From Perna viridis (lineage: Eukaryota): a stretch of DNA of 64,000 nucleotides. The notes under the pieces are model-generated. The model saw only the letters and a program-made list of their open reading frames with translations. It did no database searches and was not told where the DNA came from. A program made the translations under genes and the position numbers. The stretch lies in NCBI GenBank assembly GCA_037379345.1, contig CM074524.1, forward strand, positions 13,322,885 through 13,386,884. The letters are read 5' to 3'. Every line of letters begins with the position of its first letter. Position 1 is the stretch's first letter. Below, piece by piece: positions 13,810 through 62,200 of the stretch.

Positions 13810-14051
13810 AGAAATCGATGCAAGTTTTACGTGACATGTTTTTACTTTCTTCCAGGGATGACGTGTACACGATTATAGACTGGGAAAAGAGATACAACTC
13901 TTCATCTAAATATACAGACCAGCATTTTTATATGACTTAGTGATAATTTATTTACATTACGTATACATAACAAGAACAAAAAATCAACAACAAAAACGGA
14001 AACAAATAAATACCGCCAGGAGTTAGGACTTTGCTATCATTATGCAGTAGT

Positions 14052-14741
14052 TTAATACGGAGATACTGGTTGAATTGTCATATTGTCACTGTAGAGCTGT
14101 GGAACGAATATTGAGCCTGGGTAATCAATAACTGGGTAAGCGCCGTATGTCGTGGGTAAACCGAATCCTAGCAGGAATGGGTTGAACATTGGTTGTCCTA
14201 GAAACTGATGGTAAGTGCTGAAACCTGGTTCCTGTTCTGAGTTGATATTAAGAGCTGGTCGCTTCCCGACACCGACGAACTGTGACAAGTTTTTAACACC
14301 GCAACTTTTCAGTTTACGCTTTTCTTTCATTCTTCTGTTCTGGAACCACCATTTGATTTGAGTCTCTGTAAGTTTGAGTTTCTTAGCGAGAACTGGTCGA
14401 TCTTCAATCTGGAGATACTTGTTAATAGCATAGTAACCCTCGAGTTCTATCAGTTGTGAATTAGTGTAGTTTGTTCGATTTTTCTTCGAAGCATGGTCCA
14501 AGTCGTCGTCGGAGTTGCCCGGACTTGCCGAATCTCTGTGCTGTGTATCGCCTGATGTAGCATTGCTGTCATCGGATTCGTTAGTTCGCTTTCTCTTTTG
14601 CTGGCCATTTGTAATATCTAAGCTAAAAGTAGGTGTCACATACCCCGGGAAACTCACTGGTGGATATTCTGGAACATCACGTATGCTGCTTTTCGCGAGT
14701 TCTTCGATTGAGAAGGACATTCTAGATTTTGTATGCGCCAT
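14052..14741 (-). CDS. Intronless divergent ANTP-class (NKL, Vent-like) homeobox protein, copy A, 229 aa
   Basis: Homeodomain at 14310-14489 (SKKNRTNYTNSQLIELEGYYAINKYLQIEDRPVLAKKLKLTETQIKWWFQNRRMKEKRKL); N-terminal MSFSIEELAKSS motif; basic QKRKR; TATA box at 14817-14825; minus-strand AATAAA at 13947-13952. Confidence 0.93.
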   Translation of the reverse strand: MAHTKSRMSFSIEELAKSSIRDVPEYPPVSFPGYVTPTFSLDITNGQQKRKRTNESDDSNATSGDTQHRDSASPGNSDDDLDHASKKNRTNYTNSQLIELEGYYAINKYLQIEDRPVLAKKLKLTETQIKWWFQNRRMKEKRKLKSCGVKNLSQFVGVGKRPALNINSEQEPGFSTYHQFLGQPMFNPFLLGFGLPTTYGAYPVIDYPGSIFVPQLYSDNMTIQPVSPY

Positions 14742-14744
14742 TGT

Positions 14745-15000
14745 TCTCTTCCTGTTGTATTTATTGTTAAGACTTGAGTACTCAAACTGACAATGAGTAA
14801 CTTGAGCGGAGTCAAACTTTTTATACCAAACTTACTGATTATTGTTAACGAGAGGCGATCATGGTCGTAAAAACATTTCAACTTCCAGCTTGGTCATAAT
14901 CAGTAGTAATCATTACCTATCACTGCCACGGGCTTGGGTACTCACAGAATCTTTGCCACACTTCATTGGGCAATTATGACCAATGATAAGTGATTATTAC
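14745..15000 (-). promoter_or_regulatory. Proximal promoter/5'UTR of homeobox copy A
   Basis: TATAAAAAG at 14817-14825 (minus strand). The flanking sequence aligns block by block with 21100-21341 upstream of copy B. Confidence 0.8.
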
Positions 15001-16275
15001 CTGACTGGTAGTCTAATGATTAACTTAATTCTAAAAGGCCAAGCTAAGGAATGTCATACTAGATTAAAATATATTTTACTAAATAATTTGTTCATAATAT
15101 GTTTATTGTATACTTCGAGTTACATCGAAGGTGTATATTATATAATGACAAATTACAAATGATAATAAAAAAGATAATTATTGTTTTAAATGGAATATTT
15201 TAACCGATCCAGTTTCATTTATTTTTTTCTCCTGGTAACAACCCCTCATCATTGTGTATTACACAAACAACGGGGAAAAAAAATGCTTTAAGAATAAACA
15301 CCGAATAACCTAGAATCTGTAAAGGAAATAAATGTAAAGTCATGATAAATTGGATAGCCACACGACAACGCCACTGCGACGTGTAATTTATTATAACATA
15401 TAATACATAAAATATATATTCCAACCACATACAGTAAAACACATATAAAATTTAACCGAACCGATCAGTAGGACGACGTCGTCGTGCCGAATGAATAATA
15501 TAAACGAAAGCCCGCCAAAAATCTAAAATATTTTGAGCGGGAAAATATAAGAACGGGTAAAACGTAACAACCAACCCTACACAAATGATGCAAATACCCA
15601 GGAGAAATTAATCTCATTCTAATTCAATACTTCAACCGAATGAAATTATAATTATATTATTATCGAACGCTTGGCGTTACTTTAAAAAAAAAAAAAACAA
15701 TTGATATCAAAGTAAGCTCCTGTGTTTGTGGGTCCTTATTTCTCGGAAAACCCAATTTTTACATTGTGTTAAATAATATATGGGTTGAGATCGGGTTTTG
15801 GGTTTTGTAGGTTATAAGCATTAGTTCAATCAACTGTACAACAAAAGCCCTCTCGATTATAACAATTTATTGGTCACGTACAACATGGAAAGAGTGCAAT
15901 GTTAATTTTTCATAGTATGAGGGTTTCGTTTTGTTTTGTTTTTGCTGTTTTGTGTTGTCTTTGTCGCAGTTTGCTTGTTTGTTTTGTTGCTGTTTTGGTA
16001 TTCGAATAAGGAATGATAATTAACTTATGGAAACGGCCTATCCAAGTTGTATTGCCTTGGGGTATAACAAGAAAACAGATGATGATTATTGGGTAATATA
16101 TATTTTATTCAAATAAACAACAACAATAAACAATAAGATGATATCATCAATGCCAGTAGGCAAATTAAATGAAACCAATATCCGTATCATTGTACAAAGC
16201 ATTGAATGACTACATTGTATATTGAACAAATAAATAAAAAAGAAGACCCTCTTATATCTCAATAACAGTTAATCT

Positions 16276-19200
16276 TTAGTTGGGTATTTCTTTGTCTACT
16301 TTAACACATCTAAATAGCTGTCCAATTCTACCCATGAATCCAGACTTTTGGTTGCCGATACAACCATTTGAGGCAACAAGTTTTCGGGCGTTATCATCTC
16401 CGTCGTTGATATGTTCCATGTCTAAGCTTTCACCTCTATTCACTACAAAGATGAATTCAGTCAATTAATGTTATATATTTTCATCTAAGAGTGAGTACAT
16501 GATTGTACACGTGTGGATCCAAAACAGTTTAGTGTCAGCAGTTGGAATCACCCTTTGTTTTAAAATTTCGTTTATTTGGGGGGGGGGGCAATAATATTCC
16601 AAAAAAACAAAATTAATTTTTTATAGGACACCTTACAAAATTCTTGAATCGGTTTTAGCTATTGGATATTCAACTGGGTCTACGACGCCCAAAATTGCAA
16701 CAGAGATTAAATCGGTCAGATTGTTTTGAAACGTAATATGCTATCAAGTTTTTATCCCACCTTTTCCACGTTTGACCATTTTCTTCTTTTGCATGTTTCT
16801 CTCTTTCATCTTCTGTTCTTTCTTTTCTTTTTTGAGTACTTTCTGCAGTTCTTTCTTTTCCCTTCTTTCTTCCTTTTCTGCGTCTTTCATCTGTTGTGTC
16901 CATGCTTTTCCGTTTATTTTATTCCTTTCTCTATATTTCTCTTCTACCATCTTTATATATGCTTTTACCGTTTTCTCTTGATATTTTCTCAATTGCGTTT
17001 CTTCTTTTCTTCTTGCCTTTCTCAGTATCTTTAATTCATTTTTTTTTCTTTTGCTAACTCCCTGAAAATGTGAAAACATGCTTAAAAGACGGTCGTTCAA
17101 GTTTTCGGTACAAAGCATTTTTAAAAGAAGACATTTCAATAATTTTGCATTTTTTGCTGAGAGAAGATGTACAAATACAGGAGGGAGGAATGGAGGGAAA
17201 TCTGTTTTAAAACACAAAAATCCTCGCTAAATAATTACAGTGAATCTTTTCTAAACTGAACCCTTAACAAAGCGAAAACCTTTTTTAAACTAGACACTTA
17301 ATAAGTACTTTTATATCAATTTAAATGTATTTTGCATCTGGATAAATCGAACACTTAATAAAACCGGACAAATATGCCAGTCCAAAAATGGTTCGGTGTA
17401 CGGAGGTTTCACTGTACCGGTACTTATAATAAATCTTCCGAGTCGAGGTATAATTAGGCAGGAATTGTCTCGCATGTTATTGGTTCAATGTAGGCACATG
17501 GCAATGATGTTTATGTTTTGGGACCAACCTTTTGCGATAGGGAGGCGGACTCAAGCACCACATTGCTGTTGAGTTCGGTCTTAGTTGTGTCTAAGATTGA
17601 AGACCTTGCTGCAATTTGTACTAGCTCGAGATTTACTTTCGACACTCTGTATACCGCTTTTCCTATAGCGTCCAAACAAATCAGTTTCGCTCTTTGGTGC
17701 AATATCTCCTCGGAATCGTAACAGTCAATCTGAGGGAGTAGGATAATTTAAAAATATGAACGATAAGAATGTAATTTCAAGATAAAACAAATATAAACAA
17801 GCAACCGGTATCAGAAAATCGACAGTAAATTTAGGTATAAAGCAAAGAAAGCCAGGACCGAAACAAGAAACCGACAAGAAACAAATAAGATTAGCAGTTC
17901 GAACTACATTAAAATTGAATAGATGGGTGGATAAGGGGGATATATCATCATTCTCTGTACCTACTGGGAATTGTTCATGACAAAAGACTTCACGATGTTA
18001 TTGATGTAAGTGTAAAATTATTTGACAAAAAAAATGAACAATAGAAACAAAAACAAAAAAACAAACAAACAAACAAACACACAAGTCAACATTTCATAAC
18101 TTCATTATCATTCTTTAAATTCAGTAAACATAAAGCAAAAGTAAAGAAACGGGTATCAATAAATTCCAAAACGAAATTGGAATGTTATAGAATGGAACGA
18201 AACAAATAGAAACAATGAGTTTTACCAACCTGTGTGGTTTGGTCGTCATATGTTACTTTGGCTTTCGGAGGCGTGTCATGTATTACGACATCACCATCCC
18301 TTCTTCCTTTGTATTGAATTTGGTCTGAAAAAAAAATAATTTAGATATTCCACGATGAAGTATTTAACACCAAAACTGAAACATTAAAACTGTCTTTAGA
18401 ATAGGTAGTGAATGTACATTATCATATCAAGTTTGTTATTTATTCAAAATAATGCATAAGTGAAATAAACCGTTGCAGTAAACACAAAAAAAAATAATTA
18501 AAATGTGTGTATATAAAAGTATATCCTAAATAGTAATTAATGTGAGGATAAAGAGACGTTTTCATACCCAATTTGTAGTCTGTGTTATTGTTCGTTGGTC
18601 TCTGCACAGTAGCCTTCTCATCCTCTAATTCCACTTTGTGGGTAGCGACAATGATAATATCCTGGCACAATTGTTTAACTGCGTCATTGATCGTTTCATC
18701 ACTTTCCAATCCGAGAACCTAAAATGCATGGAAGAGCACGAATTAAGTCCTAAGAAACCCATGTAAAGACTTCCTAACATGTTTGTTGTTTTAGATTCGA
18801 CAATATTCCTAGATTTCGGATATATTCTGAGTTTGGCTTAGGCGGATATAATACTTATTCCGGTATTCTGAAAGTCAGTCGTTACAAAAGGGCACCCGTA
18901 TATGCATGTAATGTATGTGTTAAATTTTAATTCAACATTAGTAAAATTTCTAATCATAAGAATTCAAAATTCGTACAAACCTTGTGCGTTAACTGTGTGC
19001 TTGGTAATTCAACTTTTGTTTCTCTTCCTTTCTCTGCAAGACAGAAATAAGAAATTAAAATAAAAATTAATAATAAATGTAAAAAATAAACCAAGAAGAA
19101 AAAAACCTGAATTTTTATCGAAATTTAAAAAAATGGATTTTGCAAAGTTTATTTGTTTGCAATTATAACCTATCTTTCCGGGATAAGAAATGCATGCAGT

Positions 19201-20202
19201 AAAATGTGAAAAATTGTCATTTAACGTTTTCTACTTACATGTCTATTACGATTCTTGAATAATGGGCTTAAAAGTGCGAAAGTCAATAAGCTAGTCAGTC
19301 TTGAATTCTCAAATTTACCCAGAGTAATCAAGGGAACCAAGATTCTAGCGGAAATCAAAAGAACGTAATCCAGGGACAGAGACCAGACATATAACAGACA
19401 CACGCACAACAAAGAACACAAAATAACCAAAATGATATATACAAAATAAAAAAAGAAAATGATCAACTCGTGGTCCACTATAAACTTGGAGCATGGACCG
19501 GGTGCACCGATAGGGTAAGTGGAGCAAAAAGACGGACGATAGTGCTCATTCAGATCTTCGGTCCTGATGACCTGATTTAGAATATGACTATTTACACCGA
19601 TTTCCCCAATCGGTTTGGTTGAACATGCTATATATAGACAGTATTAATTCAAACTTTAACCACTGGTGTAGGGCAGGGAATGAACAAAAGAGTTCATCTG
19701 AATAGGCCAATATCGCAATCTAAACAATAACAAATTCTTATATTCCAAAACAATATATTGAAGCTTAGAAATTAGTTCAAAGTTTGGCTTGCTGTCTGTC
19801 ATCGTTCTGTAACCATGGATTTATTACTCTAGTTTCTTCAGGCTTCCAGAGCTGGGGAAGACCTTATGGTGAACTCCGTTTCACCATATCCACTATTTTT
19901 TTGTTGTTATTTTTTGTTTTTTGTTTGTTTTTGTCTTTTTTTCACTGGAATAATATTCAAGTAAAGGCCGATGTACATGTGCATAAGAATTGTACTATGA
20001 ATACATGCATCAAATGACATGGTTTTAACTTGTTACACTTCGTACCCTTTCTGTCAACCTTTCCTTGCTTTTCAAATCTGGCTTCCAACATGGCTTCTCT
20101 GGATAGCTGCCATGCATCTAATGAGCAGTTGAACTCATCGGCAAATAGAGGACCTCTTCTTATGACCATGAAACTCTTTGTTTGTCGTCCTTTTCGCGCC
20201 AT
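16276..20202 (-). CDS. Orphan 374-aa protein, 7 coding exons, with two AKAP-like amphipathic helices and a Lys/Glu-rich coiled coil
   Basis: Coding exons 20202-20046, 19033-18981, 18718-18568, 18324-18230, 17729-17529, 17061-16761, 16442-16276. All introns are GT-AG with matching phases (1,0,1,0,0,1) and there is no internal stop. This joins five separate ORF-track fragments. 5'UTR intron 20430-20211 (GTAAGT..TAG); AATAAA at 16104-16109. Read-through of exon 6 to the stop at 16744 is a possible alternative end. Confidence 0.8.
19321..19527 (-). repeat. Interspersed repeat family E
   Basis: Homologous to 10296-10510; lies in an intron of the orphan gene. Confidence 0.7.
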
Positions 20203-20626: not shown

Positions 20627-21099
20627 CATAGATACACAAAGTTTACCCTGTCGTAAAAAGCATGATAAATAATTTTTTTTTCTTTTACACTATCTAAATA
20701 ATCTTCCAAAAAATTGTCAGATTCAAAAATATACAAAATCAAGCTGCATAACTATAGTTTTTGTGGGTTTAATATGAAACAATTACTAAATTTTCTGCAA
20801 AATTAACGAACATTCTCACATATGCAGTTTTATCCTCTTTTATTTAAACAAAGTTTATCATAAATACAATAAAAGTACTATTTAAAGATACGAACAATTT
20901 ATATTTGATTTTTATTTTATTTTATTGTCAGAGGGAAAAGTCCGATTCCTATAGTCACCAAATCGAAAAAAATATAAGTTTGTTTTTTCTTTTTGTTCTC
21001 CAATTACCCATGTCAAACAGCAATCATGACAGAATAAATCACTAATAATAATAATAATCATTCATATAGAGTACCCAAGCCAATAAATAAGACCAGTAA

Positions 21100-21341
21100 T
21101 AATTGGTCATAATTGTTTAAAAGTGAGTGACAAGGGTCAACAGAGAACCCAAGCTGGTGGCAGTGATGGGTAATGATTACTATTGATTAATTGCAAGCTT
21201 TGAGTTGAAGTGTTTTGATAATGGTGATTGTCTCTTGTTAACATTAATCAAAAGGTTTCATATAAAAAGTGCGACTTAACTCAAGTTACTCATTGTCAAA
21301 TTCACTACTCAAGTTACAACAATAAATACGAAAAGAAAACA
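21100..21341 (+). promoter_or_regulatory. Proximal promoter/5'UTR of homeobox copy B
   Basis: TATAAAAAG at 21261-21269. Blocks ATTGGTCATAATTG, ACCCAAGC..GTGGCAGTGAT.GGTAATGATTACTA.TGATTA and CTCAAGTTACTCATTGTCA are shared with copy A. Confidence 0.8.
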
Positions 21342-22040
21342 ATGGCGAATACAAAACCAGTATCGAGAATGTCCTTCTCCATCGAAGAGCTTGCAAAAAG
21401 CAGCAGATGTGATACAACAGAATACTCACTGCAAAGTTTCCAAAATGATGTACTTATCAAACCTAATGTTTACCCCTTCGAAATCAACAACGACCAGCGT
21501 AAAAGAAAGCGATCATACGAATCCGACGACAGTGGTGCGGCATCAATTGACACACATCACAGAGATTCAGCAAGTCCAGGAAACTCCGATGATGATTCTG
21601 ACCATGCGGCAAAGAAAAGTCGAACAAACTTTACCAACTCACAACTGATAGAACTAGAAAGTTACTACAGAATCAACAAATATCTCCAGATTGAAGATCG
21701 ACCAGTTCTCGCTAAAAAACTGAAACTCACTGAAACTCAGATCAAATGGTGGTTCCAGAACAGAAGAATGAAAGAAAAACGAAAACTGAAAAGCTGCGGA
21801 GTTGAAGACTTGTCACAGTTCGTCGGTGTCGGGAAGCGACCAGCTCTCAATATCAACACTGACTCAGAGCTTAGCTGCAACAGTTACCAGCAGTTTCCAG
21901 GACAACCAATGTTCAACCCATTCCTGCTAGGATATGGTTCACCCGCTCTGTACAGTGCTTATTCAGGTTCAGACTATTTCAGTTCATTCCCTCGGTTCGG
22001 TAGTGACAATTTTACGACTAAACCTGTGTCTCCATATTAA
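21342..22040 (+). CDS. Intronless divergent ANTP-class (NKL, Vent-like) homeobox protein, copy B, 232 aa
   Basis: ATG at 21342 (ACAATGG) aligns with the copy A start. Homeodomain at 21609-21788 (AKKSRTNFTNSQLIELESYYRINKYLQIEDRPVLAKKLKLTETQIKWWFQNRRMKEKRKL). Same MSFSIEELAKSS motif and PVSPY C-terminus as copy A; AATAAA near 22136. Confidence 0.93.
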   Translation: MANTKPVSRMSFSIEELAKSSRCDTTEYSLQSFQNDVLIKPNVYPFEINNDQRKRKRSYESDDSGAASIDTHHRDSASPGNSDDDSDHAAKKSRTNFTNSQLIELESYYRINKYLQIEDRPVLAKKLKLTETQIKWWFQNRRMKEKRKLKSCGVEDLSQFVGVGKRPALNINTDSELSCNSYQQFPGQPMFNPFLLGYGSPALYSAYSGSDYFSSFPRFGSDNFTTKPVSPY

Positions 22041-22758
22041 AACTTATGTGCCTAAAAAGACAGTAGAGTTCTATAACATACTATGGTATTTATTTGTTAC
22101 GTTTGTTTATGTTATTGTTAATTGTAAATAATGCAAATAAAATGCTGAAAACTTAATCTTTCTCTGATATAGGAGGTAAAGTTCTGTTTACTGGACAATC
22201 CTGCATGGTAACTTGATGCGCGCATGTAATTATGTTATTTTTCAAAATCACTTTATGAGTTAATGAAGGTAGACGTTCATGGTGCTTAAGCCGAAATGAC
22301 CATAAAATGTTTAGGGTAGGCACACACAAATCTAGATTAGGTAGGGTAGCAGGAAAACAGACATTTTTTTTGCCTTATTTTAGTTTATTCAAAAAATGCC
22401 ATTGTTAAACAAAACGTGCTTAGTGTCAATAGAGCTAGGGTATAATATAAAGTCTCCTGTGACAACAAAGAGGAAAAATATATAAGAGTTCCCAACACAT
22501 CTGTTAACATGTAAAAAGTTTTATGATATTACTCGGGTGATTGGCTATTTTAGTCTAGTTCTACTAAATAAATGTTCCTGGCCATAATAAAAGACATTCG
22601 ATAACAAACCTCAACAACAACATATCAATTATAAATTTGATATAAAAAAAACAAAACAAAACAAACAATAAAAAAAAACAAAAACAAAAAAACAAAAAAA
22701 AAACTTACTGATAATTCATTGAAGGTCGGGATCAACTGTCTTAATTTAATACTACCCA

Positions 22759-22794: not shown

Positions 22795-50590
<27,796 letters not shown>

Positions 50591-56216: not shown

Positions 56217-59200
56217 TCACAACTTAACACAAACAGTTTTCTGTTCCATGAAAAATTCCATAGAGTCGGCTGTTCCTTCACGTCCTACTCCAGAATCCTT
56301 CATTCCACCAAATGGCATGTTTAAATCTCGCACCAACCAACAGTTTGTCCATACAGTCCCAACCTTCAAATAAAAATATGTCCATATAGATCATTTATTA
56401 TATAAATGTATACCGGTAAATATTAATAAACAATAATATAGGATTATTGCATTTATTTTGGTAAATATTGTCTCAAGCAGATTGCAGTATTATACTCTGT
56501 AAGGGATAATAATAATAATCCTTTTATAATACTGTGAAAGAATTATTGTGGGGTACCAATTTTTTGTGGGTTTGGTAAACCATGAAATTAATTTCCCAAT
56601 GAAAAGAAAATTTCCCAATGTTTTGTATAATAGAGTTGACAAATCAGCAAATTCATGAACCTACGAAATGATAAATTTTCCTTAATCCATGAAAATTAGT
56701 ACCCACTAATAAAAGTACATTCACAGTATAGTAATAAGTATTTCATACATCCATATGTGCCTGTACAGATTCATTCATTTACAAAATTATTAAACATTGA
56801 ACTAATTCTAATATGGGCCAAAATTTCACATCTGAATCAATTCAATATACGTCTCGTTTTCAACATCTATTCTGAAATTACTATTAATTGGTATTAATCT
56901 CATCTACTTAACATTCATCTGGATCTACTTAATATTCATCTGGATTTTTTAACAAGAAATAAAATGCATTGTGGAATGATTAACATCCACCGTTTTGTGT
57001 TGACAATGCAATATTACCAGAGTCAATTTCATAAAATATGGTTCTTCTATGGCATGGTTGTTTTCTCTGTCTTTTCTATTTAAACTAGAAATACTGTGGG
57101 CAAGATCACACAGAGAATACACCACACCATACTTCAAATGTATTTAAATGTAAAATCCTTGATGGATTATCTCCCTTTGGATTAATGTGCCAGGACTTAT
57201 ATTCCTTCATGCATATATACATATGATGCCCAACCTAGCAATATAATTTCATTTAAATCCCTTGAGCAATCTCTATGGAGTTGCATTTAAGAGGTTTTAA
57301 TATGTTGAAATTCGATATCTTTTGGAGACCTCTGACAGTAATTATGTTTCTTTTTGCAAATTGACATATGATACCCAGCCTTCTTCATATCAAAATCCCT
57401 TTTTTTTAGTTTATGAGGAGTTGCGCTTAGAGGTTTTAACACGTTAAACCCTTAACTTGGATTTTCTCCCTTTAAAGTCTTCTGACAGAAAGTATATTCT
57501 TTCATGCACATCTGCACATGATACCCAGCCTTTCCATAAAATAACATCAAAAAGCCTTGAGCAGTTCAGGAGAAGTTGCACTTAGAGGTTTTAACATGTA
57601 AAACCCTTAATTTGGATTATCTCCCAATGTAGTCTTTCAACAGTAACTATATTCCTTCATGCACATCTACATATGATATCCAACCTTCCATCAAAGTCCC
57701 TTGAATGGTTTATGAGGAGTTGCGCTTACAAGAAATATGGACAGACGGATGGACGGACGGCACGACTGAGGGACAGACAGGTGATTCCTATATTCCACCC
57801 AAACTTTGTTACTGGAGGCAAGGGGGGAGTATAATTAACTTGGTCCATGCTCCCAGGTTTTGGTTGAGTCTGATTTACTTTTGTTGCTTTGTATTATTAT
57901 TTTGGTTATTTTATGTGCTTTGTTATGTATGTCTGTTTCACATGTCTGGTCGTTGTCCCTGGATTGCATTCTTTTGATTTCCGCTAAAATCTTGGTTTCC
58001 ATGATTACTTTTCCATCAACTCATTGCAATTCAGTTATCATTGATGTAAATATTGTATTTTATTTGATTTTCTCAATGTTTTGAATACTGTACTCTACTA
58101 GATCTGTATTCCCAATTCTATAATACCTGCAACTCTCTTGCCACACGATGCACTGTGGAGACATTTGATGTCCACAATGTAGCACATAGTCCATACTGCA
58201 CACCATTGGCCCTTCTAATAACTTCCTCCTCGGTATCAAACGGCATAACACACGTCACTGGTCCAAAAATCTCTTCCTGGATCACGCGAGAGTTGTCTGC
58301 TACGTTGGTGATAATTGTAGGTCTCATGAAATAACCCTTGAAAGAAGGAGCATAACAAATAAATATATACATATTTTCCAAACTATAAATCGATGTGGAG
58401 TATAAGTTGAATTGCCTAATTTTGACCAAAATCGATAAAAAAACATAGATAAGTCGAATTTGCCAGATAAGTCGAGGGTCAGAAGTGTGCATTTATATTG
58501 AAGGTGTCATTGCAGATCCCATTGAGCGGTTTATTTTTAAAGCATATTACTCCAGCGATGTTTCTTAATACTTCCCTACCTATAACATGGGTTAAGAGGA
58601 GATGAGGATACAAAAATAGACCAAAATGGGACATTCAATGAGACAACTCCATGTTGCAAAATATTTTTGGATGTACAAGCAATTTATAATGACCAATATT
58701 CAAACTTGATTTGCATTTTATGATACTCACAATTTAACTAAAAGTTTGAAAAAGATCCTTCAACATCTACAAAAATTATCATCTGGAAATCGGGGATGGA
58801 TGGATGAATGACTGACATGCAACTTTTCGGGGGTATCACATAATACCTTGCCAAATCATCTGACGGGGTAAAAATGTAGTTAAACAGAGAGACAGTATGA
58901 TAGGACAGTATGTGTGTATATATACAATGTCTCAGAGTGTGACGACTCTATTCCCCAAAAATTTGCGAANNNNNNNNNNNNNNNNNNNNNNNNNNNNNNN
59001 NNNNNNNNNNNNNNNNNNNNNNNNNNNNNNNNNNNNNNNNNNNNNNNNNNNNNNNNNNNNNNNNNNNNNNNNNNNNNNNNNNNNNNNNNNNNNNNNNNNN
59101 NNNNNNNNNNNNNNNNNNNNNNNNTGACGACTCTATTCGCTATATTGGGGTATAACCAAAAAAGTCCTCTAAAAATAACAGTATCTATTAATAAAAAAAT

Positions 59201-62200
59201 CCTTAATAAACAAAGTGTCTACAAATATTGAGAATAACTCATATGACAATGGTCTATAATTTTCAAAATGGTCAGCTTTCTACAGGAGAGTTTTGAATGA
59301 AAAAATAACTTTCTAACCAGAGAAAATAAGAAACAAAACTTCCAAATCATAATAGGATAACTAACTGGAAGGAGTGAATAATCAAAATATGATCACGAGT
59401 TAAATCTTACTGACACAAGTGATCATATTTTAGTTATTCACGATAACCAATTGATTATCCTATTTATTATATAAGTTTCCTTGATTATTCGTTGCTATTG
59501 ATATCAAGGTTGTGACATAAAATATTATTTCACAGAGTGATCATGAATTATCAAAATTTATTACACTGGGAACATTTGATCATTTCCATGGGGAGACAAG
59601 TACCTGTCTGAGTTTACAAGGAGAATCATTGTCACTATTTTGCCCAATACGGCTGACAAATCTTGGATGTGACTGAAAGATTTGTAGATTGGCATTTTCT
59701 ATAACATGGGAAAAAATATAAGGATATCTGAGGTAAGGTGATCAAAATTCTGTACAAGGGGGTGATATATTCCATATTTTCTGAGTTATTCATTTTCATT
59801 ATAAATTGTTTTGGAACCAAATTCATAAATGTAATTACATTTTTATTTCTTTCTGGTAAATTCAGAACCTCTTTGCCACAGACTATAGTAGCACCCTCTT
59901 TTTCTGCAATCTCAACATAGCCTTTGACCTTAGCTAGGTGTTCTTTACTAATCAAAGCACCAATAAATGACTTGTCATCCTTTGGATCACCAACAACCAG
60001 ATTTCTATAATGTAAGTAAATTTTTTTTTAAGTGATAAAAAAACATACCGGTACATTCTTAATCAGCGATCAAGGAAATGTTATCTTTTATCGGTGTGAG
60101 GAATCTTTTGAGACAAGATTACTTCAATTTTTAGCGATGAGAAATTTCCTTATCTCCCCTATTGAAGAAATAAAGCATAAAATTTTTGTGACGTCAGAGT
60201 TAAACATTTGATCTCAGACACCCTAAAGTAAAATTTGGATATTCTATAACTCAGCAATGCCTCACTAGGGAACTACTAAACACACCCGAGAGTGTCTGAA
60301 ATTACAGTCTTGCACTTTCAGCTGTATAACATTCTTGACATCTTTTTCAAAATGAAGCACAGGACCTGTTTTCAAAATCTATGCATTCGTATAACAAAAA
60401 AGTTCCCTTTCCCTTGAAAGTGAATAAACCAACCATTCTTATTTTGTTGCAAAATTTGTTGTAAGGGGAAATTTCATGGGATAACACAGTAAAAATCTGG
60501 GTCAATTCCACAAATTACTGCCTCACTTTTTAACACATGTGCATGCAGTATTATTTACACCTCATATACATGTATCTTCAAATACAATAAGTTATCTCCT
60601 AAATCTAAGATCTTTTCAAAGTTCATGTATTTCTATATAGAAATACTTACTTGGCAGCTTCAGTGAATTTTTCCAGGAACGTTGGATACAGATTTCTCTG
60701 CACATAAATCCTACTGGTACACAGACAAATCTCTCCTTGGTTTATAAAGCTAGATCTATAATATATTATCAAGACATGAATAATATATATAAAAAGGTGA
60801 GTTCTGAGTTATATCAATGGTAACTAAAGCTTTTGAATGGTAATCTTCTGATTTACCCCATACACAGCCAAATTAGCCACATAAGAAAATCATATGTTTC
60901 TTAAGGAGGTAGACCTAGGGTAAGGGACATAACTTTTGAAATCAGTGATATGTTTGTATCATTTTCAATTTCACCAAAGCCTATCAAGCTTTCATTTGAA
61001 ACAGAATGAAATCAGTCCAAGTTGCTTTGAAGCTTACATCAGAATGATGTAAAATGTTGAATACAAACATTCCATTGATTTGTAAGAGTTGTGTCCCTTA
61101 CCCTAGGACTACCTCCTTAATTCATATGATAATAAGCACCTGAGAGTCATATAATTAGCATATGACCTTAATATGTAAATATTTGCCTGCTAATATATGA
61201 TAATTGTGTGATTAATCAAATGATTATCATATGTAAATTAAAAAAAATATGTTAATCATATGCTTGATTCATTTGATAAATATAATGATTCTCATATGTA
61301 ACACTTTTTTCCTGTGTACAACATCCTCTCATTATCAATTCTCAATAATTGAAACATCCCTATTCCCCATAGAATCTTCATTGCAGGTTTCATGACTCCA
61401 TAATATTTAAAATGACAAAAATCAATTTACCTAATGGTTGTTGCAATGCATTTCTCCAGATCAGCATCATTAAATATCACAGCTGGATTCTTTCCCCCTA
61501 ACTGCAAAATATTAAAATGTCAAAACTATAATACTGCTGGAAATTTAAAAAATTGATTTGATGAGATTTATATGTTATAATATGGATCTCAGTGTTCTAG
61601 GATTCCTATTTCCTGTTACCTGGGGCAAGTGAAATTTGGGTCAGGGAAAGTTAGGTACTTAGTTACACTTTCCTGTGGCAAGTTGAAAACTTCATATGCT
61701 GTAAGGATTTATTTTGTTAGGAAAGCAGTCATTGACTGTGGGAAAGTTGATTTTATATGGATTTTTCCTCAGGAAACCTCAATTTCTGAAAAATCCAAGA
61801 ACACTGGATCTAAGTCTTAGGCGGAGTAGTTTGAAATAGTTTTATTTTGGTAATTTGCTGATTCAACTTAACATCATTAAAAAATAAAACAAGAAAATTT
61901 TTAAGTAGGGGTATTTCACAGATATTTTATAACCAGAATAATATGAAAATGACTGTAAATTTATTTATTTTAGAGGTGTACTAATTTTCTCTATTTTCAC
62001 AGTGGACAGATAAGTGTGAAAAAAAGTACCCCTGAAATGGATTTTTCACACTATATTACACTTATCATTTTTTTAAACATTAGTGAATATGATTGTGTGA
62101 CAAAATCCACGAAAAATTAGCAACCGTGAAAATTAATACGTTTATAGTATTCAAATGCAAAAAGTCCATAACATGTATATATTTTCACAAATGGTTAAAA

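Follow-up and report, generated by a model that had tools for sequence, protein, structure and literature searches.

Residue 47 is one of the three main determinants of 3′ specificity in homeodomains. When Engrailed was put through selections, covariation of residues 47 and 54 was seen with base 4 and, to a moderate degree, with base 5, and tryptophan at position 47 (W47) is not mentioned in the available main text of that study (PMC3460184). Like the domains described below, plant WOX proteins carry an aromatic residue 47 together with Q50 and N51. In WUSCHEL (WUS), Y86 touches the methyl group of the +1 thymine by van der Waals contact and also binds phosphates of the backbone (PMC7203112), and F142 and Y143 of STENOFOLIA (STF) embrace bases and form a docking pocket too (PMC8329861); Y86 and Y143 represent position 47 because N90 of WUS and N147 of STF represent N51. 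WOX proteins serve here as a working analogy only: the family is unrelated, the residue is Tyr rather than Trp, and F46 and R55 (TGA reader) are found instead of K46 and K55. Aromatic residues 47 are also known in animals, in spiralian TALE Clade I (Y47) and the second homeodomain of beetle Dve (F47), but these belong to other classes and Trp occurs in none of them (PMC5322547). Position 47 is not always decisive, because the I47T substitution barely altered LEUTX activity (PMC6258689).

The described family of relevance is ANTP NKL Clade I, of which a KEKR sequence at the homeodomain end is a mark and whose published tree support is 27% (Paps et al. 2015, PMC5322547). KEKR and T47/Y20 are found in all or most of its published rows, T47 in five of five, although T47 is not stated there as a definition of the clade. 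A 'Vent-like' gene listed on the oyster NK chromosome (PMC7566022) is presumably the same gene as oyster Cgi_NKL. The chordate Vent/Ventx genes are similar in their Q50 NK-like homeodomain and lineage-specific duplication, but they are defined by Q50 with T47 (PMC3033397), and the genes reported here have Q50 without T47.

Results

W47 in two intact paralogous genes

Two intronless W47 genes, copies A and B, were identified in the window, i.e. the whole stretch of 64,000 nucleotides analysed (Table 1). They are oriented divergently, 6.6 kb apart, and no third copy was found within the window. The copy B homeodomain was translated into 60 residues with R5, Y20, P32, W47, W48, F49, Q50, N51, R53, M54 and K55. 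An earlier note on this DNA had reported W47, Y20 and P32 in both copies, and R5, W48, F49, Q50, N51 and R53 as intact; translation confirmed the former, with TGG as codon 47 in each copy, and the latter was verified in copy B. Both proteins scored above the Pfam cut-off for PF00046 (74 bits; cut-off, 22.9). The AlphaFold2 model showed pLDDT >90 over three helices and an rmsd of 1.2 Å to the BARHL2 and Msx1 DNA complexes (Foldseek), and a canonical three-helix homeodomain fold with L16, W48, F49, N51 and R53 is predicted. Elsewhere in the window, a long single-ORF B-box (TRIM-like) gene (43788-45338, minus strand) and aldehyde dehydrogenase exons (58121-60027, minus strand) were noted.

Table 1. 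Positions of the features of copies A and B in the window.
Feature	Position	Strand	Basis or remark
CDS of copy B without introns (232 aa), W47 member of NKL Clade I (Vent-like)	21342..22040	+	Reading frame open from Met to the stop codon
Copy A, intronless CDS, 229 aa, W47 paralogue of copy B	14052..14741	-	
Homeodomain, copy B (Q50, N51, M54, K55, KEKR end)	21609..21788	+	Translation, Pfam, fold model
Homeodomain, copy A	14310..14489	-	
W47 codon TGG, copy B	21747..21749	+	Same letters in run X2 contig
W47 codon TGG, copy A	14349-14351	-	Same letters in run X1 contig
eh1-like motif FSIEELA, predicted to bind Groucho, copy B	21375..21395	+	Kept across family alignment; function predicted from PMC4901127
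Post-homeodomain motif DLSQFVGVGK, copy B	21807..21836	+	W47-clade version of the parent's GGVD..QL.A.G.PCPPP
Putative poly(A) signal, copy B	22136..22141	+	Sequence only
Proximal promoter, copy B	21055..21267	+	TAATCA/TGATTA at 21055, 21174, 21184 and 21245; TATA box at 21261
Proximal promoter, copy A	14819..15022	-	TATA box at 14819; five TAATCA/TGATTA

A sequencing or assembly error was ruled out by contigs from public runs and by genome matches. The contig of run X1 record 1 (14029-14412) spans the W47 codon of copy A and that of run X2 record 11 (21681-21847) the W47 codon of copy B, each with 0 differing letters, and the W47 helix pattern gave exactly five matches in the host genome (control, 0). 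A pseudogene was ruled out by the intact ORFs and a homeodomain dN/dS of 0.058 between copies A and B.

Selection and conservation

The homeodomain is under purifying selection (copy A versus B: dS, 0.78; dN, 0.045), and dN/dS was 0.26 outside it; most other paralogue pairs were saturated at synonymous sites. The earlier note had taken the sharing of W47 by two copies as a sign of selection. This argument is weak alone, because copies A and B inherited W47 from one ancestor and a neutral TGG would have stayed unchanged between them with a probability of about 0.10 (at dS 0.78); selection on W47 is nevertheless supported by the five paralogues and by the conservation of the residue in a wider set of domains. 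These 43 distinct homeodomains were chosen by Y19-Y20 and the motif at 48-54, with residue 47 unused, and all 43 carried W47, so that the variation among orthologues that would have spoken against the earlier note was not seen in this set. Residues 46-56 were invariant, position 43 varied, R5 was kept in 41 of the 43 and KEKR stood at positions 55-58 in nearly all. Fifteen further members of the W47 clusters were collected (14 of cluster 1 and one of cluster 5), and W47 was present in all 12 that cover the helix (11 of the 14 and the single cluster 5 member).

Y20 and P32, which the earlier note had listed beside W47, were ruled out as co-novelties. Oyster Cgi_NKL also has Y20, which is thus inherited and the ancestral state of NKL Clade I. 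P32 is older than W47 and variable: T47 sister copies have it, and just 34 of the 43 W47 domains retain it.

Family placement

The gene is a member of NKL Clade I (Vent-like), a spiralian ANTP group in which T47 is the rule, and this assignment ruled out an orphan gene. In their helix signature, the T47 relatives agree with the ANTP NKL Clade I rows of Paps et al. (PMC5322547), and a comparison by eye showed the Mytilus parent P0051 and oyster Cgi_NKL to be identical at 50 of 57 homeodomain positions. As in the published NKL Clade I gene, the KEKR end, Y20, Q50, M54 and an N-terminal eh1-like motif are present; unlike it, copies A and B lack the T47 of the clade, W47 being the derived state, and the mussel copies are intronless and lie off the NK chromosome. 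The subfamily further differs from the clade in an altered C-terminal motif and in its numbers, with five copies here and at most 12 distinct proteins per Mytilus species.

With copy B as the query, 44 proteins were retrieved, the query among them, and every one had W47; all 31 of the W47 proteins with a named organism came from Mytilus (M. coruscus, 12; M. trossulus, 7; M. edulis, 6; M. galloprovincialis, 6), which points to a mytilid mussel as the host. A search with the protein of the T47 copy on C10 returned 35 T47 members of the clade and three W47 proteins. All 18 named NKL Clade I matches outside Mytilus (scallops, gastropods, chiton and freshwater mussels) were T47, and no further named taxon with W47 was added by a search with a W47 profile. 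Restriction of the W47 subfamily to mussels is the best reading of these word-seeded searches of unevenly annotated public data.

Two trees, both without Cgi_NKL and with P0051 and scallop, limpet, abalone and chiton proteins as stand-ins, show that W47 arose once, from T47. In the homeodomain tree (102 rows, 60 columns, quick method, residue 47 included), the W47 and NKL Clade I rows fell together in one group of 78, separate from the canonical families (SH-aLRT, 90), and a single change sufficed for the 43 W47 rows. In the whole-protein tree (29 selected proteins, careful method, residue 47 removed), 13 W47 rows formed one clade (94/96) nested in a derived group (100/99). The frog sequence P0087, which we take to be Vent, was placed on a long branch outside the clade in the 60-column homeodomain tree with its one Vent sequence; many T47 relatives are labelled 'vent1-like' by NCBI.

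Y54 is a feature of Nk3. The Nk3 label attached automatically to several Mytilus matches was rejected, as residue 54 is M here and the Y54 gene of the host genome (L010) groups elsewhere. Lopx/Spiro-Nk was also ruled out, the helix signature being found solely in Cg_NKL in the PMC6118893 supplement. Labels in the databases were inconsistent for the mussel W47 proteins (NKX3-1, HOX3, GBX and Rx). Scallops were also seen to have an NKL Clade I expansion of their own: each species of Argopecten, Pecten and Mizuhopecten has three to four T47 proteins (P0062-P0079). The post-homeodomain motif GGVD..QL.A.G.PCPPP is kept across molluscs in the clade of the intron-bearing parent, and no mention of it was found in the available portions of the literature on the clade.

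Copies in the host genome and their origin

Five W47 loci, all intronless, were found in the host genome (two on C14, one on C7 and two on C1), along with two intronless T47 relatives (C8 and C10). An intron-bearing T47 parent (L034, G000:C3:4976386-4978076) lies on a contig with several NK-type homeoboxes and is the orthologue of the canonical NKL Clade I gene. Two GT-AG introns were recognized in its genomic sequence, one of them between homeodomain residues 44 and 45. The seven derived copies have uninterrupted ORFs without CDS introns on contigs other than that of the parent; the copies have lost introns and dispersed to other chromosomes. Two hallmarks of a retrogene, absence of the parental introns and a new location, were observed, and retroposition is a plausible origin. 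A retrogene would also be expected to leave the parental core promoter behind, but a TATA box followed at similar spacing by a CTCAT-like element is common to the parent and most copies, so DNA duplication with intron loss may be the origin instead. No flanking DNA of relatives was found in metagenome scans.

The helix-2 changes (IEDRP and P32) predate W47, as they are found in the T47 sister copies. The likely order of steps would be from the intron-bearing T47 parent to an intronless T47 copy, then to P32 and the IEDRP helix 2, then to replacement of T47 by W, and finally to further duplication.

Promoters and expression

The promoters of copies A and B are 74% identical over 276 bp. In the 350 bases before ATG, TAATCA on either strand occurred four times in copy B, five in A, four in the C7 copy, and three and two in the C1 copies (C1a and C1b), against three and one in the T47 copies and 0 in the parent; the two more distant 350-base bins held at most one. 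The motif was noticed before its enrichment was tested. In the four promoters without mutual alignment (copy A omitted as a homologue of B), 13 TAATCA were observed versus 1.4 expected, and TAATCC, TAATCG and TAATCT were absent from the same four. The C7 sites sit in a short tandem repeat; with that copy left out, 9 were observed versus 1.05 expected (P value, about 0.003 after correction for all 6-mers). At least four TAATCA sites were present in only 1 of 383 control tiles, which are not promoter-matched. TGACA was also enriched (16 versus 4.3 expected). Clusters of TAATCA/TGATTA and TGACA mark the proximal 350 bp of the derived copies, upstream of L003, L004, L005 and L006 as well as in the window, and are missing from the parent.

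Sites of the TALE type include TGAT and TGACA. In a mussel, expression of the spiralian TALE genes is maternal or early zygotic (PMC8524836). An upstream activator would be at least as likely as autoregulation at the TAATCA sites, because a T47 copy has such sites too.

In the portions read of two raw RNA runs, depth was zero over the copy B CDS, and copy A had only stray reads. Short contigs of run X1 with a depth of 2-5 lay on both copies, and DNA carry-over is possible in this run because one contig extends upstream of the TATA box. Any expression of the W47 copies may be narrow and perhaps embryonic. In an annelid, a gene named vent, which might belong to NKL Clade I, is responsive to inhibition of BMP (10.1101/2025.05.29.656861).

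Between copies A and B, a spliced five-exon RNA contig of run X1 (16229-20198, minus strand) starts about 1.1 kb upstream of copy B and runs away from it. It holds no reading frame of more than 107 codons, and a K/E-rich ORF overlapping it had no Pfam match. A very high-copy short repeat at 19321-19510, SINE- or MITE-like, was also seen in RNA reads.

Discussion

W47 is rare. The trio WWF was counted 0 times in the searched files of the supplement of PMC5322547 (an alignment of 1,940 homeodomains and the figure alignments), versus IWF 713, VWF 694, TWF 135, YWF 28 and FWF 8. A set of 377 homeodomain stretches, taken from 136 newly retrieved representatives and biased toward multi-homeodomain proteins, contained W47 three times, F47 nine times and Y47 seven times. 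One W47 stretch belonged to the family and the other two to unrelated multi-homeodomain proteins with an independent W47 (P0205 and P0211), which ruled out that W47 is unique in nature. A full-text literature search for WWFQN returned 0 papers, and no description of the mussel subfamily was found in the literature on Mytilus and bivalve homeobox expansions, subscription papers being largely outside the coverage; the subfamily is apparently undescribed so far.

On balance, and by analogy with the plant domains, W47 domains probably keep binding the TAA(T) core with a shifted preference at bases 4-5. R5, N51 and K55 would go on reading the TAA(T) core, the W47 indole would pack against the backbone and the methyl group of the base-4 thymine like Y47 in WUSCHEL, and W47 with Q50 and M54 would make the preference at bases 4-5 differ from the one of the T47 parent. 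Groucho would be recruited by the N-terminal FSIEELA, so that the copies would act as DNA-binding repressors. The eh1 consensus is N-terminal and of the FS-I-x-x-L type. F12 and L17 of the eh1-like motif are nearly invariant in the family alignment, and eh1 recruits Groucho in NK-like proteins (PMC4901127); repression by the W47 copies through this motif would be expected.

The earlier note had proposed altered DNA-binding specificity or a new interaction surface, and Y47 of the WOX proteins offers a structural precedent for each. Conservation alone cannot single out base reading, because the whole recognition helix is invariant. It may be, although we consider it unlikely, that W47 mainly serves protein contacts, forming a surface where helix 3 begins for homo- or heterodimers assisted by DNA, with a monomer motif near the ordinary TAAT. 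The STF residues F142 and Y143 (positions 46 and 47) line the docking pocket with helix-2 residues (PMC8329861), WUS dimerises through I66, F85 and Y86 (PMC7203112, PMC8329861), and the W47 clade has a distinctive helix 2 (IEDRP), Y19 and a remodelled post-homeodomain motif. However, position 46 is Lys, not aromatic, in all 43 domains, the helix-2 changes arose before W47 in the T47 sister copies, and the TAATCA sites of the promoters have no common spacing.

Slightly more doubtful still is the proposal that W47 was fixed under relaxed selection after duplication, tolerated and then entrenched, in which case the sites would be parent-like and the novelty would lie in expression and dosage. A single origin of W47 offers no convergent evidence of adaptation, fast-evolving branches lead to the copies, the I47T change has little effect in LEUTX (PMC6258689) and the unrelated, divergent multi-homeodomain proteins tolerate W47 as well. 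This proposal has to face the lack of any reversion or change in the 43 domains or in the 11 of 11 helix-covering members of cluster 1, the two or three base changes needed to turn T into W (ACA in the sister copies, TGG here) and the absence of W47 from the 1,940-domain set. That W47 weakens or blocks DNA binding, the copies being decoys that titrate Groucho or partners, is very improbable: the side chain is bulky at the DNA interface and the eh1-like motif is kept, but K46, Q50, N51, R52, R53, M54 and K55 are invariant, R5 is retained as given above and Y47 domains bind DNA in crystal structures (PMC7203112, PMC8329861).

A wider proposal goes beyond the shifted base 4-5 preference favoured here, and as a whole it is improbable: W47, Q50 and M54 would form a new code by which 5-12 intronless repressors read TAATCA, including in their own promoters, giving a self-limiting circuit in the early embryo of Mytilidae.

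Within a known clade, W47 is a real, conserved and rare substitution that marks a mussel subfamily. The substitution is conserved in an otherwise ordinary Q50 ANTP domain, and the T47 parent and T47 intermediates are found with it in one genome. The W47/T47 series may offer a clean case for the evolution of a new DNA-binding preference in duplicated genes, within a mussel homeobox expansion whose database labels are inconsistent.
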